Shown here in pieces: positions 14,248-59,447 of a stretch of 64,000 nt of DNA. This stretch comes from Escherichia phage JY01, in sequence record OR995200.1, one strand, 5' to 3'. The position numbers were made by a program, and so were the translations under genes. The notes under the pieces are model-generated. The model saw nothing but the letters and a program-made list of their open reading frames with translations, searched no databases and was not told where the DNA came from. Each line of letters begins with the position of its first letter. Within the stretch, counting starts at the first letter, position 1.

Positions 14248-14462
14248 TAATAAATTTCCTTCCAGTAAGTTGTGCCATCTTCAGTAATTTCACGAAATAC
14301 ACCGTAAATTGGTTGTTTATCACCAACCTTTTCATACACATAAACCGAAGTCAAGTGAGTAAACTTGATGGTGTGTTCCTTTTGAACTACTACCAAATCT
14401 GGATCGAATAATACATCTTCAAATTCGTCATTAGTGCAATTCTGAACAATTTTACGTTTCAT
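14247..14462 (-). CDS. Hypothetical protein (71 aa, cef position)
   Basis: Same length as T4 Cef and same relative position. Sequence not independently recognised. Confidence 0.4.
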
Positions 14463-14475
14463 TACAATTTCCTCA

Positions 14476-14745
14476 TTAATTGAACAGTGGAGCGATGCGT
14501 TTCAGAAGAGTAGCAGCACCTTTAGCGAATTTTACATCATGAAAAACAGTTTCTTCTTCCGTTACAACACGAACTTTAATGTTTTCACAATCCCAATTTT
14601 TACGAACAATCTTCAAAAGCTGCAGTAAATCTTTACATTCAGCAATATCGATAACACATCCACGAGAATCTTCCATTATCGCACGATAACCGTAAGCCAT
14701 ACCATAATCGTTGAAAGATTGCTCGATGATAATTAAGTTTTCCAT
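14476..14745 (-). CDS. Hypothetical protein (89 aa)
   Basis: Track ORF starts at a TTG inside the leader (MENKM...). The real ATG follows TTGGAGAATAAA. Confidence 0.5.
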   Translation of the reverse strand: MENLIIIEQSFNDYGMAYGYRAIMEDSRGCVIDIAECKDLLQLLKIVRKNWDCENIKVRVVTEEETVFHDVKFAKGAATLLKRIAPLFN

Positions 14746-14764
14746 TTTATTCTCCAAGTTATTT

Positions 14765-14845
14765 TCTGTATCAGTAGTTGATATTGATATAGTACCATAA
14801 TCAACTACTGATGTATATAGTTTTATGAAAAAATTTTAAACTTTA
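14765..14845 (-). promoter_or_regulatory. Promoter-leader cassette with atypical -35
   Basis: Conserved TGGTACTATA and leader CAACTACTGATACAG are present, but no canonical GTTTAC at -35. Confidence 0.4.
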
Positions 14846-14852
14846 TGCAAAT

Positions 14853-15272
14853 TTATGCTAAAGCTGCTTCGCACCATTTTTTAATTTGGAATTCAGGAAC
14901 TACCATGAACTGGCCTGCAAAAACAATATTGTAGAGCTTGACACCATCTTCTACCCAACGGTCCGAAATAAAACCAGCGACTTGATTCGTTGTCCATGGA
15001 GTTCCATCTGTTGCCGCCGCAATTGTGAATTTATGGTCTTTTACAACTAAAACTGAAGAACAAAGTTTCCATTTAAATGCGCTTTCTTCTGGCTCAATGA
15101 ACTGACTTGAGACATAACCAATGTTACCATCAGCGTCACGAACTTTAACCTCGTTACGACCAAAAACTGGATCACTTACAGAAAGAACTTCAACCAGCTT
15201 TCCTGCAACTTTAGAACGAGAAGCAACGGATACATATACGTAATCACCAGTAGAGAGATTTACAATATTCAT
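14853..15272 (-). CDS. MotB-family paralog A (139 aa)
   Basis: Shares N-terminal VxVASRSKVAGKLVEV and C-terminal D-x-W-V-EDG-x-K-L-Y-N-I-V-F-x-G-x-F motifs with the two upstream genes. Confidence 0.5.
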   Translation of the reverse strand: MNIVNLSTGDYVYVSVASRSKVAGKLVEVLSVSDPVFGRNEVKVRDADGNIGYVSSQFIEPEESAFKWKLCSSVLVVKDHKFTIAAATDGTPWTTNQVAGFISDRWVEDGVKLYNIVFAGQFMVVPEFQIKKWCEAALA

Positions 15273-15281
15273 AATAATTCC

Positions 15282-15755
15282 TTAAGCTTTACGAGGAGAA
15301 GCATAACGAGTGATTTCAGATTCTTCAACAACCCGGAAGTCACCTAAGAATACGATATTGTAGAGCTTTTCACCATCTTCAACCCATTGGTCTGTGATGA
15401 AGCCACACATCCTATCAGTTTTACTTGGACCAGCGAAATCATCAATATAATCGAATTCTTCATCAGTTACAAATTCAACGCCTTTACACAACGCCCATTT
15501 AAATTGTGCATTAGACTCAGTGGATTCAACTTCTTCAACAGAAGCAAAATGAGAGCTAACACGAGTTTCCAGAAATTTAGGACTTACGTAAGCGTACTGA
15601 GTTTCAGTTTTTCCAGAACTAGGAATGATTCGAACTTTAACTTCTATAACACGACCAGTACCATTAGTACGAAGTCCTACCACTTCAACTAGACGACCTG
15701 CAGCTTTAGAACGAGATGCAGACGATACACGCTTAATTTCACCGATAGTAATCAT
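15282..15755 (-). CDS. MotB-family paralog B (157 aa)
   Basis: SSASRSKAAGRLVEV ... FITDQWVEDGEKLYNIVFLGDF. ATG start. Confidence 0.5.
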   Translation of the reverse strand: MITIGEIKRVSSASRSKAAGRLVEVVGLRTNGTGRVIEVKVRIIPSSGKTETQYAYVSPKFLETRVSSHFASVEEVESTESNAQFKWALCKGVEFVTDEEFDYIDDFAGPSKTDRMCGFITDQWVEDGEKLYNIVFLGDFRVVEESEITRYASPRKA

Positions 15756-15793
15756 AATTTTTCTCTCTTTATTGTTAAGATTTATTCTCCATG

Positions 15794-15828
15794 AGAGCCA
15801 TTATAACAGGCTCTCTATAAAGTAAACT
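15794..15828 (-). promoter_or_regulatory. Early promoter with inverted repeat around the -10
   Basis: GTTTAC, spacer, GAGAGCC-TGTTATAAT-GGCTCTC, then a 5-codon mini-ORF ATGGAGAATAAATCTTAA before the paralog B start. Confidence 0.45.
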
Positions 15829-16322
15829 TAATTAAGGATATTAATTACTGCACTACGTGGAACTACACTAAAATCACCTGCATGAACAACGTTCAGAAGT
15901 TCAACACCGTCTTCAATCCACTGATCAGTTACCCATCCACTCACTGGACCTGCGAACGGACGTCGAATTGAAACAGCTTTACACAACAAATCAGTAGGCT
16001 CAATAGGCTTAACCAGAGTACCGTACATACAAGCGATATCCATATCAATACAGATGTCTTTAACGGGTTCTACTTCTTCAATCAACAGTTCAAAGTCGGT
16101 GCTTGGAAGGGCGGTAGTAGAAATTGTACCGTATGAATTTTTAATTTCTAAGAATAACCAAGAGCCTTCAACTTGTTTGATGAAGTTAACAATAGTGAAA
16201 CTATTACCTTGAGTGGCGCCTAAAATTTCACAAAACTTTTCATAAGCTCGCACTGAAGCACCATACCAGTTGATTTGCTTTTCGTCTTTCAGGATGTAAG
16301 TAGCTGTAGTACTGATATTCAT
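15828..16322 (-). CDS. MotB-family paralog C (164 aa, motB position)
   Basis: C-terminal WVTDQWIEDGVELLNVVHAGDF. Size and position resemble T4 MotB (recalled as 162 aa). Confidence 0.5.
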   Translation of the reverse strand: MNISTTATYILKDEKQINWYGASVRAYEKFCEILGATQGNSFTIVNFIKQVEGSWLFLEIKNSYGTISTTALPSTDFELLIEEVEPVKDICIDMDIACMYGTLVKPIEPTDLLCKAVSIRRPFAGPVSGWVTDQWIEDGVELLNVVHAGDFSVVPRSAVINILN

Positions 16323-16334
16323 GATGTTTTCCCC

Positions 16335-16838
16335 TTAATCTAAGGTAATAAAGCCTTTTAATTCGGCATGTGACTTGCGGAACATTACTTGATGACCGCC
16401 AATGATAACTTGGTCATCAGGTACTTCGTATACAGCGAGATAAAATCCTTTAGAAGCTAATTCTTCACGCTCTTCTCGTGTGAACCATCTCATCATATCA
16501 TATTCGCTAGCGAAAGCAAAATGATAAAGAGCTATAAACCATCCTGGAATATAGTGATCTACGCCTACATATTCTTCTTTCTCAAAATTAGTATTAATTG
16601 CTATATTAGCATTTTTAACTAATAGTTTGTCTTCGTGCGGAAGAGGAATTCTTTTATTATCATTACTATGATGCATAAAATTAGGTCTGTCATAACCTAC
16701 GTGTAATAACCACTCTTCACTCCATGAATCTATTATACTCCTGTACGGAGTTATTTGAACACAAAGATCTCGACGTATTGTTATAGCATCTTCATAATTA
16801 AGAATACTAAATGATGATTCAACACGATAAATTTTCAT
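16335..16838 (-). CDS. Hypothetical protein (167 aa)
   Basis: Track ORF starts at a TTG inside the promoter -10. The real ATG has a GAGGA Shine-Dalgarno. Confidence 0.5.
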   Translation of the reverse strand: MKIYRVESSFSILNYEDAITIRRDLCVQITPYRSIIDSWSEEWLLHVGYDRPNFMHHSNDNKRIPLPHEDKLLVKNANIAINTNFEKEEYVGVDHYIPGWFIALYHFAFASEYDMMRWFTREEREELASKGFYLAVYEVPDDQVIIGGHQVMFRKSHAELKGFITLD

Positions 16839-16861
16839 TTTATTATCCTCAGTAGCTATGG

Positions 16862-16895
16862 TGTTATAATACCACAACTAACCGAGGAAGTAAAC
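16862..16895 (-). promoter_or_regulatory. Early promoter
   Basis: GTTTAC, 17 nt, GTGGTATTATAAC on the minus strand. Confidence 0.5.
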
Positions 16896-16901
16896 AACTT
16901 T

Positions 16902-17585
16902 TTATCGTTTTGTTGGAAGAGACAGAGGATCGCACTCTTCCTCTGACGGAGCATCTTCAAGACCCATAGCGTATCGCAAAGCATACTTCATCATCAGGAT
17001 GTCTTTCGCGCAGTCATGAATAGAATCATGTGCAACGAATCCATCTAAAGTTCCTTTTGGAAGAGGACACGTGGTCATATCACGAACAAGCAGAAGTGCT
17101 TCAATTCTGGTACGAATATCACGCTGATTCCAGAATTTACAAGGTTCTAACTTAAATGTATCAAGCTCATTCTCGGAAACGCCGTTAAGACGTTGAATAT
17201 CGCGAATGAGATCGACTAAAATTGGAAAATCAAACGACATTCCACGGCACCAACCTTGAGATTTCCAAGGATCGATATTATGCGCATTGATGTAATCATT
17301 AAATTTTGCAATACCATCGATAGTGCTTACATCTTCATCTGATGGCGCAATATTTTTTCGAGCTTCAGGAGATTGATTCTTCCACCATTCGATAGTGCTT
17401 TTAGTAAAAAGACGATGTCCTTTTTGACTTTTTAAGTCAAATTTAATTTTAATGCCACGTGAAACTAGTTCATCGAATGTTTCAACAACTTCCGGGTTAG
17501 GGTCAAAAGCAATTACAGCCAAATCAATAACAGCTGCTTTTTCACCGCTTCCCATCGTTTCAAAATCTATAATAAAATCAAACAT
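16902..17585 (-). CDS. dexA: Exonuclease A (DexA), DEDD 3'-5' exonuclease
   Basis: 227 aa as in T4 DexA. N-terminal FDFIIDFETMG resembles exonuclease motif I. Confidence 0.8.
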   Translation of the reverse strand: MFDFIIDFETMGSGEKAAVIDLAVIAFDPNPEVVETFDELVSRGIKIKFDLKSQKGHRLFTKSTIEWWKNQSPEARKNIAPSDEDVSTIDGIAKFNDYINAHNIDPWKSQGWCRGMSFDFPILVDLIRDIQRLNGVSENELDTFKLEPCKFWNQRDIRTRIEALLLVRDMTTCPLPKGTLDGFVAHDSIHDCAKDILMMKYALRYAMGLEDAPSEEECDPLSLPTKR

Positions 17586-17827
17586 TAAACTTTCCTCGCT
17601 AAATCGCGAATTTGACCTACAGTATAATCTTGGATATAAACTTTATTAATGGGCTCATCAATAAATTTTGCCATAGATTCAATATCTTTTTGCATCTCTT
17701 CAAGACTGTATACTATCTTTGAAGCTTTTTCACGAATAGTTACATTTTCAGGTCCTGGATTTTCTTCAATGACAGCTTTAACATTTGCCATAAGAGATTT
17801 AAACTGATACCAACTTAATTCAATCAT
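17585..17827 (-). CDS. Hypothetical protein (80 aa)
   Basis: ORF between dda and dexA. Confidence 0.4.
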   Translation of the reverse strand: MIELSWYQFKSLMANVKAVIEENPGPENVTIREKASKIVYSLEEMQKDIESMAKFIDEPINKVYIQDYTVGQIRDLARKV

Positions 17828-18318: not shown

Positions 18319-19638
18319 TCACACATAAAACACATCATAACGACCACGTGTTACACCAACATAAAGAAGCTGCTGAGCTAGTTCAGCATCTGCATAATGA
18401 ATACAAGGCGTATAAATGAAAGCACGGTCTACAGACATACCCTGGGCTTTATGGAATGTTGATGCAGGAAGTGCTTTCACTTTACTAAACTGTGATTTAG
18501 CATCCCAAAAATCACTCCACGGAGCCTTTCCGCCTTTATTCCAATTTTTATAAGTTTCTGCCGTTTTACCTAAAAACAGGTTAAACTTATATAGCTCTTC
18601 ATCAGATGAAATTATTTTAATCTTTTCACGATAATATTCATCATCGCCGTAAGTTTCTACTGTTAAATCCCAATGACGAATTAAGTATTCTCCAGGAACA
18701 CCACGAGCTTTAACAAACGTTGATGTATACTCTGCTTCTATAATACGAACTAATTGTCCGTTATTAAAAATAATTTCTGATACCGGTTTTCCGTCAATTT
18801 TATACGTTTTAATTAACGGTTCTTGCATTACAATAATTTCACCGACAATAAAATCTTTATCAGTTTCAAAAATCTTTTTACGAATAATGCTATTTAACTT
18901 GTCAACAGATTTATTCGTAAATGCCATTACGCGATTTTCAAACAAATCATCTAATGATTTTACGATTGAAAAATAATTTACCATAAAATCGCGTAAAGCG
19001 GTATCACCAGTAAATCCACGTACTCCATGCCCGTCAACAACTTTATCATAAATCCACTTACCGTTGCGAACATCAGTAGCTACATCAATAATAGGAGCAT
19101 TACTGCGTTTAACTTCAGTAAGTTCACACTGATAAAAATCTTTGTGTGTAAAGAATGGACTGATATAAGCAGTATTTTCTCCTGGATCAACAGGTCTAAT
19201 TTGCTTATTATCACCTATTCCAATTATAGTACACCACGGCGGGATAGTTGAAAGCAGAATTTTAAATAGCTTTCTATCATACATTGACACTTCATCGCAG
19301 ATTAATACTCTGCATTTAGCTAAATCTGGTACTTCTTTTTGTTCAAAAAGAACGTTTTCTTCATATGTTACCGGGTTAATTTTAAGAATGCTGTGAATAG
19401 TACTCGCTTCTTTCCCTGATAGTTTTGAAAGAATCTTTTTAGCTGCATGTGTAGGAGCTGCTAAAATAATACCAGTTTCACCCGTAGATATTAAAGCTTC
19501 AATGATGAATTTAGTAAGAGTAGTCTTACCGGTACCAGCAGGTCCATTAATAGTTACATGATGTTTCTTTTCTTTAATAGCCTTCATAACAATGTTAAAG
19601 GCATTTTTCTGGCCTTCGGTCAAATCATCAAATGTCAT
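18319..19638 (-). CDS. dda: Dda DNA helicase (SF1B)
   Basis: 439 aa as in T4 Dda. Walker A GPAGTGKTT. Confidence 0.9.
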   Translation of the reverse strand: MTFDDLTEGQKNAFNIVMKAIKEKKHHVTINGPAGTGKTTLTKFIIEALISTGETGIILAAPTHAAKKILSKLSGKEASTIHSILKINPVTYEENVLFEQKEVPDLAKCRVLICDEVSMYDRKLFKILLSTIPPWCTIIGIGDNKQIRPVDPGENTAYISPFFTHKDFYQCELTEVKRSNAPIIDVATDVRNGKWIYDKVVDGHGVRGFTGDTALRDFMVNYFSIVKSLDDLFENRVMAFTNKSVDKLNSIIRKKIFETDKDFIVGEIIVMQEPLIKTYKIDGKPVSEIIFNNGQLVRIIEAEYTSTFVKARGVPGEYLIRHWDLTVETYGDDEYYREKIKIISSDEELYKFNLFLGKTAETYKNWNKGGKAPWSDFWDAKSQFSKVKALPASTFHKAQGMSVDRAFIYTPCIHYADAELAQQLLYVGVTRGRYDVFYV

Positions 19639-59413: not shown

Positions 59414-59447
59414 TGTATAGTACCACAGAGGAACAGTCTTGTAAACA
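59414..59447 (-). promoter_or_regulatory. Early promoter cassette
   Basis: GTTTAC, spacer, TGTGGTACTATACAACTATCAACTACGGAGGAACAG. Confidence 0.5.

Follow-up and report, generated by a model that had tools for sequence, protein, structure and literature searches.

The window analysed here is the whole 64,000-nucleotide stretch of Escherichia phage JY01 (OR995200.1), which is a Tequatrovirus and shares 99.5% identity with Ge15 and Sf23 by megablast. On its minus strand lie three adjoining open reading frames for proteins of 139, 157 and 164 aa (Table 1), which are real and as the first-pass annotation of the sequence had reported them. The order of genes in the region is dda, dexA, motB.2, motB.1, motB, motB-like, an 89-aa ORF, cef and goF, and the neighboring genes agree in synteny with the annotated T4, Ge15 and RB51 genomes. 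The locus is the part of a T4-like phage's dispensable early region that carries motB.1, motB and the motB-like gene. Upstream of these, motB.2 has a start codon that fits the 504-nt coding sequence of Ge15 and RB51; its 167-aa product gave no Pfam motB match, which places it outside the MotB family as the upstream partner in a motB.2-motB.1 pair.

Table 1. Positions of genes and regulatory features at the motB locus of the window
Feature	Position	Strand	Details
Second paralog of MotB type (139 aa, short linker; type of RB51ncORF010c)	14853..15272	-	BLASTP against 157-aa MotB E=4e-29; phrog_1671 E=1e-50; RB51 note
motB ortholog of 157 aa with a KOW-like N-domain, a disordered linker at residues 66-82 and a beta domain at the C-terminus	15282..15755	-	
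Predicted RegB/S1-type cleavage motif in motB leader, GGAGAATAAAT	15780..15790	-	10/11 match to consensus GGAGRAYARAA
7-bp hairpin, -10 element in 9-nt loop	15793..15815	-	arms GAGAGCC 15815-15809 / GGCTCTC 15799-15793; loop TGTTATAAT 15808-15800
P(motB), T4-type early promoter	15800..15827	-	-35 GTTTAC 15827-15822; TGn (TGT) 15808-15806; -10 TATAAT 15805-15800
motB.1 ortholog, 164 aa	15828..16322	-	phrog_2333 E=7e-83; Pfam motB 35 bits (residues 84-159 only); annotated motB.1 in RB51; AF2 pLDDT 79
motB.2 ortholog, 167 aa, ATG at 16838	16335..16838	-	phrog_1106 E=6e-57
P(motB.2), layout like P(motB)	16838..16895	-	-35 GTTTAC 16895-16890; -10 TATTAT 16871-16866; 10-bp hairpin, arms 16880-16871 / 16862-16853 around the -10; GGATAATAAAA 16848-16838

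All three proteins belong to the MotB family. Against PF17613 (motB), the 139-aa protein scores 72.1 bits, the 157-aa protein 140.4 and the 164-aa protein 35.0, each above the Pfam gathering score of 25 bits that served as the membership threshold. A full-length match takes in both the KOW-like N-domain with its SRSKAAG motif and the C-terminal domain. The 157-aa protein shows one, its residues 1-153 aligning to profile positions 2-158, as does the 139-aa protein, with phrog_1671 covering residues 5-139. The match of the 164-aa protein runs through its C-terminal part alone, and this protein is placed in the MotB.1 family by phrog_2333 over residues 1-164 and by 74-94% identity to annotated motB.1 proteins. 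In pairwise BLASTP, the 139- and 157-aa proteins align over their full length with 40% identity, while the 164-aa protein aligns with the 157-aa protein over 42 aa (E=1e-11) and with the 139-aa protein over 29 aa (E=6e-11). Common to all three is the C-terminal block G-(F/W)-(I/V)-(S/T)-D-(Q/R)-W-(V/I)-E-D-G-x-x-L-x-N-(I/V)-V, so this part of the first-pass annotation holds. An HMM of the C-terminal domain searched against the six-frame translation of the 64 kb found exactly 3 copies, and among 1.84 billion proteins a profile of it recovered no more than 31 cluster representatives. The shared module is one small all-beta domain, joined to the N-domain by a disordered linker of variable length. 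MotB and the 139-aa paralog carry a KOW-like SH3 barrel as their N-domain; that of MotB.1 is a putative LSm-like barrel, a fold with a bent five-stranded antiparallel sheet.

The three genes had been annotated at first as MotB-position paralogs of one gene, with N- and C-terminal motifs in common and only their middles different. The C-terminal block favors this, and MAFFT does align GASVRAYEKFCEIL of the 164-aa protein under SASRSKAAGRLVEV, with few identities. However, the N-terminal motif (S/V)ASRSK(V/A)AG(K/R)LVEV is found in the 139- and 157-aa proteins only. BLASTP detects no significant similarity between the N-terminal half of the 164-aa protein and those of the other two, and an N-domain-only profile-profile comparison of MotB with MotB.1 (hhalign, hybrid proteins left out) returned a probability of 0.1% and E=0.53. 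In the AF2 models the motif-aligned stretch forms a helix in the 164-aa protein, where MotB has a loop that leads into a strand. The PHROG families are distinct (phrog_2333 and phrog_1671), and in published work the N-domain of MotB.1, described as LSm-like, is grouped with GoF and Frd.2 and kept apart from MotB (Kim et al. 2025, PMC12152347). We consider this reading of the three genes very improbable, and at the level of sequence it is already refuted: two of the genes are of MotB type, and the third is motB.1, whose N-domain is unrelated and which shares the C-terminal domain alone. An end-to-end similarity of MotB and MotB.1 obtained by hhalign of the full alignments was set aside as confounded, one of the two alignments having contained hybrids with a MotB-type N-domain.

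This picture fits the published one, in which MotB and MotB.1 have a common C-terminal domain and different N-domains, and phages with extra copies are noted (Patterson-West et al. 2021, PMC7827196). The paralogs add little to that small, Tevenvirinae-restricted family. T4 MotB, the modifier of transcription characterized by Patterson-West et al. (2018, 2021), binds DNA tightly without sequence specificity and changes the position of H-NS on DNA (PMC6070864, PMC7827196), and it is for T4 MotB only that non-specific binding and the altered H-NS footprint are established. Others have shown that its overproduction is toxic and that it doubles burst size, and that T4 MotB.1 is dispensable. By homology, the 139- and 164-aa proteins are assumed to bind DNA as well; the 139-aa protein would be a second DNA-binding MotB variant, and the C-terminal domain may be a common nucleic-acid- or partner-binding module on which the N-domains confer different specificity.

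Copy number, which the first-pass annotation had proposed comparing, ranges from 1 to 3 across about 30 loci. RB51-type Tequatrovirus and Mosigvirus phages, the latter with the same three-gene layout as the window, carry 3 copies, most others carry 2, and T2 and Kosakonia phage 305 carry 1. These loci come mostly from a GenBank phage collection; viral contigs gave 3 loci with a single-protein query and 16 with an alignment query. Three chimeric proteins (P0104, P0036 and P0035) combine a MotB N-domain with a 139-aa-type C-terminal domain, and the family has diversified by tandem duplication together with recombination between tandem copies.

Upstream of motB lies P(motB), which has the elements of a T4 early promoter (a -35 of the GTTTAC type, a TGn, the -10 TATAAT and an upstream A/T-rich region). 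The same element precedes motB in T4, T2, JS98, Bp7, SP18 and others; its -35/-10 spacing is 15-16 nt in the window and 17 nt in T4. A generic sigma-70 scan of 14400-17700 did not include P(motB) among its calls, so its identification rests on comparison with T4, for whose motB promoter PMC1702504 mentions primer-extension stops. The "internal promoter" of the first-pass annotation is there, as the counterpart of this T4 promoter with its primer-extension evidence, and downstream of it comes a RegB-type site, which the annotation had passed over. Expression is predicted to run in two units, both driven from early promoters of the T4 type: motB.2 and motB.1 from P(motB.2), and motB and the 139-aa gene from P(motB). 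Within each pair a gap of 9-12 nt separates the stop codon of the first gene from the start of the second, whose Shine-Dalgarno sequence overlaps that stop codon. For the 139-aa gene the sequence is AAGGA, and the motB stop ends 9 nt before its ATG.

The -10 element of P(motB) does lie inside a perfect 7-bp inverted repeat, as had been noted from the sequence. We found that this repeat is a conserved RNA hairpin, which is the one addition made by this analysis. Across 11 distinct variants from three genera, 100% of cells are paired and both-sided changes occur in 5 of the 7 pairs, compared with at most 55% pairing in slid controls. The 8 non-Watson-Crick cells are all G·U on the sense strand. 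These counts were taken from a realignment of the stem-loop only (N pad), since a MAFFT alignment of the whole intergenic region misplaced one stem gap, and the covariation reflects few independent events, namely two main stem types and single wobble changes. The predicted RNA fold is stable (MFE -18.9 kcal/mol, z=-4.4); the hairpin of Mosigvirus phages is not the same one, lying upstream of the -10 and being weaker (z=-1.3). In an Rfam scan of 14300-17100 the sole match was a sub-threshold one to Y_RNA, within the coding sequence of motB.1, which we take as chance. The hairpin of P(motB.2) likewise keeps its pairing in other phages, through sense-strand G·U or A-U changes. Spacer and downstream sequence were complementary in a way that singled out the partner belonging to the same promoter (permutation p about 0.001). 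This specificity appeared solely in the duplex test of own versus other promoters, not in a scan for stems around TATAAT.

Directly downstream of P(motB), and about 35 nt ahead of the start codon of motB, is the predicted RegB motif, which is kept in the aligned phages and reads GGAU in JS98. In T4, RegB efficiently cuts the GGAG of motB, a model substrate, and the motB.2 GGAU is a mapped RegB cut, according to Durand et al. (2006, NAR, PMC1702504). The motB and motB.2 promoters sit inside conserved RNA hairpins beside mapped RegB sites, which gives rise to the idea that RegB might treat read-through and promoter-proximal early transcripts differently. Because the 5' arm is upstream of the P(motB) start site, the hairpin would form only in transcripts reading through from motB.1. 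In such RNA an extended stem is predicted to pair with the adjoining RegB site (the GGAG and its A-rich tail). With the site paired, the structure could shield read-through RNA from RegB, or form a cap at the 3' end that a cut leaves on the upstream fragment, or do both. Transcripts initiated at P(motB) would lack the 5' arm and leave the RegB site exposed. The stem-GGAG pairing is weak in the window, with two G·U pairs, and shows almost no covariation because the GGAG is invariant.

The function we attribute to the hairpin has to be weighed against other explanations of the repeat. One of them makes it a DNA-level element, either a palindrome that a repressor or activator uses as its operator, or a cruciform controlling the motB promoter; its centering on the -10 is typical of an operator. 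The stem sequence, however, differs fully between lineages (GAGAGCC, GGGACC, GGGGTC) while pairing is kept, which fits poorly with a sequence-specific protein site. Read from the opposite strand, or in a cruciform, all eight G·U cells would moreover turn into C·A mismatches, and no such regulator was found in the T4 literature searched, so that we regard a DNA-level role as improbable. Chance in AT-rich phage DNA, as a source of both the shared protein motifs and the repeat, is scarcely credible. In its favor, repeats of at least 6 bp flanking an exact TATAAT are no commoner in the window than in shuffles (6 against 9.4 ± 2.9), so a -10 within a hairpin is no general property of the window. 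Yet the hairpin is conserved with both-sided changes in three genera, and chance motifs, the outcome named in the first-pass annotation as one that would overturn it, are ruled out by BLASTP similarities of E 1e-11 to 4e-29 in a family of hundreds of members.

Alternatively, the hairpin could act mainly as a 3'-end element of the motB.2-motB.1 mRNA, a terminator or an exonuclease barrier, with the promoter overlap reflecting a compact genome. It begins 13 nt past the motB.1 stop codon, it has the stable fold described above, and a RegB cut at GG/AG would create a new 3' end just 4 nt away from it. Other results speak against this role: the stem is followed by AUGGAGAAUAAA, with no U-run of the kind that accompanies the GC-rich stem of an intrinsic terminator, a terminator scan of 14400-17700 found 0 terminator-like sites, and T2, which has lost motB.1 and motB.2, keeps the hairpin. 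We view such a role as possible, if on the unlikely side; it is compatible with masking of the RegB site.

Taking the masking idea further, we tentatively propose that inverted repeats spanning early promoters work as RNA switches by which transcripts are told apart according to where they began: read-through RNA would hide the RegB site or Shine-Dalgarno sequence in the extended stem of its hairpin, and promoter-initiated RNA, lacking the 5' arm, would be open to RegB and ribosomes. We offer this generalization as a speculative one. The candidate sites are P(motB.2), P(motB), a promoter-like site after the 139-aa gene, and early promoter-like sites at 59446 and 6359. If the proposal is correct, a mechanism of the T4 late promoters of e, soc, 49 and I-TevI would extend to early promoters and be tied to RegB-driven mRNA decay. 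We hold with high confidence the account as a whole, that is, a known motB.1/motB/motB-like cluster, its protein domains, and expression in two units with a read-through hairpin. Because the genes are already described and the promoter corresponds to that of T4 motB, the cluster itself is a real but ordinary finding, and none of the initial observations made from the sequence is new.

Comparison with known relatives shows where the window departs from T4. The 157-aa protein is the ortholog of T4 MotB, alike in genomic position, length class and full-length Pfam match (140 bits), with about 43-46% identity between the two. The 139-aa protein has the two-domain layout of T4 MotB with a much shorter linker, and has no T4 counterpart. 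It is the same gene as RB51ncORF010c, whose protein is 100% identical and which the GenBank entry for RB51 notes as "similar to motB and RB32ORF010c"; further counterparts are that RB32 gene itself and, in RB69, the second copy of motB. The 164-aa protein is orthologous to T4 MotB.1 (phrog_2333), both being encoded upstream of motB and probably having the same type of N-domain. Unlike T4 MotB.1, it retains the C-terminal domain intact, and its linker contains an additional segment, DMDIACMYGTLVKP. The 119-aa T4 reference protein is shortened by a +1 G frameshift within the C-terminal domain, so that the reference motB.1 is a frameshifted allele without most of the shared domain, which affects how experiments with T4 MotB.1 are read.

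The RegB site occupies the same place after the promoter in both phages, a GGAG with an A-rich tail (GGAGAAUAAAU in the window, GGAGUAUAAAA in T4). Cleavage is known for the T4 site and predicted from sequence for its window counterpart; the role of the neighboring hairpin is not discussed in the available parts of PMC1702504. The closest parallel to the proposed arrangement is found in the T4 genes e, soc, 49 and I-TevI, in which hairpins hide the ribosome-binding site in long transcripts and the proximal promoter lies inside the hairpin (PMC3014915). The logic is alike, as the 5' arm is upstream of the proximal start and read-through RNA alone folds. In those genes the promoters are late and it is the Shine-Dalgarno sequence or AUG that is hidden, whereas at motB the promoter is an early one and the element that could be paired is the predicted RegB site.

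The genes of this locus follow one another as they are annotated in T4, Ge15 and RB51 (see table). When we searched with 14700-16950 by megablast, 688 phage records were returned, and the best matches were Tequatrovirus without exception, headed by Escherichia phage Ge15 and Shigella phage Sf23 at 99.5% identity over the whole query. The RB51 annotation calls the three tandem genes motB.1 (164 aa), motB (157 aa) and RB51ncORF010c (139 aa), the last described as "similar to motB and RB32ORF010c". A mechanical ORF list gave two neighboring ORFs TTG starts, at 16335-16877 (180 aa) and 14476-14757 (93 aa). The context of Shine-Dalgarno (SD) and RegB motifs, along with GenBank annotations, instead indicates ATG starts at 16838 (167 aa, motB.2) and 14745 (89-aa ORF). 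A sub-threshold Rfam match to Y_RNA within the motB.1 coding sequence (16083-16173, minus strand; E 0.007) was taken as chance, as its 28.1 bits fall below the gathering score of 38.

Features of the motB region and of related promoter-like sites
Feature	Position	Strand	Remark
dda	18319-19638	-	first in transcription order
three small ORFs	between dda and dexA	-	
dexA	16902-17585	-	
P(motB.2) -35 GTTTAC	16895-16890	-	
P(motB.2) 10-bp stem around -10 TATTAT	16880-16871 with 16862-16853	-	two sense-strand G·U pairs
GGATAATAAAA	16848-16838	-	after P(motB.2) stem; last bases are the start codon
motB.2	16335-16838	-	followed by the 164-, 157- and 139-aa genes
motB.1 (164 aa)	15828-16322	-	
P(motB) inverted repeat	15815-15809 with 15799-15793	-	encloses -10
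P(motB) RegB site	15790-15780	-	
motB (157 aa)	15282-15755	-	
139-aa gene	14853-15272	-	
11-bp perfect inverted repeat CAGTAGTTGAT / ATCAACTACTG	14810-14800 with 14782-14772	-	after 139-aa gene
GGAGAATAAAA	14755-14745	-	perfect RegB consensus; doubles as SD of 89-aa ORF
89-aa ORF, cef, goF	after 139-aa gene, in that order	-	
four complementary promoter-like sites	59446, 16895, 15827, 6359	-	-35/-10 spacer against first 45 nt downstream

The first-pass annotation had described the three genes as paralogs sharing an N-terminal motif and a C-terminal block. All three ORFs are present, and the C-terminal block is common to their products at a level far above chance by BLASTP. The 139- and 157-aa proteins align over their full length (E=4e-29, 40% identity), while the 164-aa protein aligns with the 157-aa protein over 42 residues (E=1e-11) and with the 139-aa protein over 29 residues (E=6e-11). 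Each passes the curated threshold of the Pfam motB model, PF17613, the match of the 164-aa protein being confined to its C-terminal part (residues 84-159), and an HMM of the shared domain found exactly three copies in a six-frame translation of the window. The N-terminal motif holds for the 139- and 157-aa proteins but not for the 164-aa protein, where the aligned place reads GASVRAYEKFCEIL. BLASTP detected no significant N-terminal similarity between the 164-aa protein and the other two, and a profile-profile comparison of the N-domains only (MotB type versus MotB.1 type) gave a probability of 0.1% (E=0.53). A full-length profile comparison had suggested end-to-end likeness, which we rejected because one alignment contained hybrid proteins, a confounder. 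In PHROGs, the 139- and 157-aa proteins both belong to phrog_1671 (MotB-like), and the family of the 164-aa protein is phrog_2333. The observation is therefore real, yet partly misstated. Its interpretation, a diversifying family rather than a single motB, is right in outline but not new, as it is already contained in PMC7827196, PMC12152347 and work on T4 MotB.

AlphaFold2 models built on family alignments show two small beta domains both in the 157-aa MotB (mean pLDDT 81) and in the 164-aa MotB.1 (mean pLDDT 79). Between the domains lies a linker modeled with low confidence, which spans residues 66-82 of MotB and 86-106 of MotB.1; it corresponds to the variable middle noted earlier and carries large indels across the family. 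The common C-terminal domain is modeled with five strands and zero helices, and may be closer to a barrel of the SH3 type than to an OB fold. For MotB, Patterson-West et al. (2021, PMC7827196) predicted a KOW-like N-domain followed by a C-domain with an OB fold; in their homolog search, RB69 carried motB in two copies, motB.1 in one, and a remnant of 29 aa. The MotB.1 N-domain has been grouped with GoF and Frd.2 in an LSm-like fold family, and T4 motB.1 is dispensable (Kim et al. 2025, PMC12152347). Experimentally, T4 MotB binds DNA tightly and non-specifically and alters the H-NS footprint (PMC6070864, PMC7827196). MotB is detected in T4 among the early proteins; in experiments it proved toxic on overproduction, and it doubles the burst size.

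The family is narrow. A profile of the shared domain matched just 31 proteins at E<=0.001 among 1.84 billion cluster representatives. A collection of 5.8 billion proteins contained 106 MotB-type and 220 MotB.1-type clusters, every one with PF17613, and nearly all named members came from T4-like phages or samples contaminated by them. With the shared domain removed, the N-terminal parts form two BLAST-connected groups, one holding the 139- and 157-aa proteins and the other the 164-aa protein. Copy number, which the first-pass annotation had proposed to compare, varies from one to three among about 30 fetched loci. RB51-type Tequatrovirus and Mosigvirus have three copies, most phages have two (T4, JS98, Bp7, SP18 and AR1 among them), and T2, where motB.1 and motB.2 are missing, has one. 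Kosakonia phage 305 (L034, Kanagawavirus; 1673-2122) also has a single copy, and its product is a hybrid in which an N-domain like that of MotB (VS..SRS.LAGK) precedes a C-terminal domain of the MotB.1 type. Four database proteins (P0165, P0167, P0172 and P0206) are hybrids of the same kind. Two others, P0104 and P0036, consist of a MotB N-domain and linker (T4-type or RB69-type) followed by a 139-aa-type C-domain, and in P0035 the switch of type falls within the C-domain. These last three chimeras suggest that tandem copies recombine with each other, which, if true, would account for both diversification and changes in copy number.

The T4 reference motB.1 (L001, NC_000866, 2142-2651, minus strand; also L004) encodes 119 aa ending in ...GWVTDQWIGRWR, and the 149-bp "intergenic" DNA after it holds the remainder of the shared domain in a different reading frame. 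Removal of one G from GGATTGGAAGATGG yields a 143-aa protein with a complete MotB-type C-terminal domain, identical to P0121 (256 contigs). Only the two T4 reference records have the extra G among all fetched loci. Judged by its sequence, the T4 reference motB.1 is an allele frameshifted by +1 G, and the truncated protein of 13.8 kDa is what published experiments on T4 MotB.1 used.

Turning to expression, the motB.1 ATG lies 12 nt past the motB.2 stop with the SD AAGGGG, and the 139-aa gene has its ATG 9 nt past the motB stop with an SD, AAGGA, that overlaps the stop. From this spacing, motB.2 and motB.1 appear to form one pair and motB and the 139-aa gene another, each pair headed by a promoter and the two linked by read-through. 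The minus-strand sequence of the 72 nt that separate motB.1 from motB is TAA GTTTAC TTTATA GAGAGCC TGTTATAAT GGCTCTC AT GGAGAATAAAT ... AAAGAGAGAAAAATT ATG. T4 early promoters have the elements GTTTAC, TGn and TATAAT; these are present here, as previously proposed, and the same arrangement recurs before motB in T4, T2, AR1, JS98, Bp7, SP18 and others. For the motB promoter of T4, Durand et al. (2006, PMC1702504) mention stops in primer extension; the window promoter, P(motB), is by sequence its counterpart. Its -35/-10 spacing is only 15-16 nt, and it was absent from the list of a generic sigma-70 scan. The 11-nt GGAGAATAAAT after the repeat, overlooked in the first-pass annotation, matches the RegB/S1 consensus GGAGRAYARAA at 10 of 11 positions. 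According to that paper, the GGAG of T4 motB mRNA is cut efficiently by RegB and was a main model substrate in defining the consensus, and GGAU, found at this position in JS98, is the substitution best tolerated. Structured GGAG sites are resistant to RegB.

The 7-bp inverted repeat around the P(motB) -10 is perfect in the window. We compared 11 distinct stem variants from Tequatrovirus, Dhakavirus and Gaprivervirus, and found that the sequence differs (GAGAGCC, GGGACC, GGGGTC and others) while every cell pairs (77/77, 100%). Two-sided changes occur in five of the seven stem pairs, drawn from few independent changes: two principal types of stem and a few individual wobbles. None of 500 shuffles matched the observed pairing or covariation score, and sliding the partner by 1-3 columns lowered pairing to 25-55%. 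In all eight non-Watson-Crick cells the sense strand has G·U, which fits an RNA structure of the motB-sense transcript and speaks against two DNA-level readings of the repeat, an operator bound by a protein and a cruciform. The fold in the window reaches -18.9 kcal/mol (z -4.4), with comparable values in T4 and SP18. Before motB in Mosigvirus (L008, L009 and L033), a 5-bp stem, CATCC/GGATG, lies between -35 and -10 with a weak fold (z -1.3), and GGAG overlaps its 3' arm immediately 5' of the TATAAT/TATAGT box. T2 (L032, 1367-1551), where motB.1 is missing and motB.2 is reduced to a short remnant of its start, retains the motB promoter, hairpin and GGAG site directly before motB, with the motB.2 promoter further upstream.

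Similar layouts are found at other promoters. The P(motB.2) stem is retained in other phages through G·U or A-U changes; in Dhakavirus the spacer CTCCTCATG instead pairs with CATGAGGAG at the SD. According to PMC1702504, RegB was found to cut just two GGAU sites, one of them that of T4 motB.2. The repeat after the 139-aa gene encloses a promoter-like TACTAT box (TGGTACTAT). Strong complementarity between spacer and downstream sequence (-15 to -24 kcal/mol) occurs in 4 of 16 early-promoter-like sites on the minus strand, each spacer preferring its own downstream region over those of other promoters (permutation p ~0.001), and two of them (59446 and 6359) have a GGAGG SD within the 3' arm. Stems flanking exact TATAAT boxes in the window showed no excess over shuffles, so the feature is limited to a subset of promoters.

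Transcription from P(motB) should start about 7 nt past the -10, where the 3' arm ends, so the hairpin would be possible only in read-through RNA from motB.1. In predicted folds, an extended stem pairs GGAG with CUCU (T4, SP18) or CUUU (window) just 5' of the 5' arm. A two-part model is the best we can infer: in read-through RNA the RegB site would be hidden and/or, after cutting, a protective hairpin would be left at the end, while RNA begun at P(motB) would expose the site. This logic is already known from the T4 genes e, soc, 49 and I-TevI, whose late promoters are embedded in hairpins that hide the ribosome-binding site. The conserved promoter-spanning hairpin beside a RegB site is the sole element for which we found no description in the T4 literature searched, and we infer its function.
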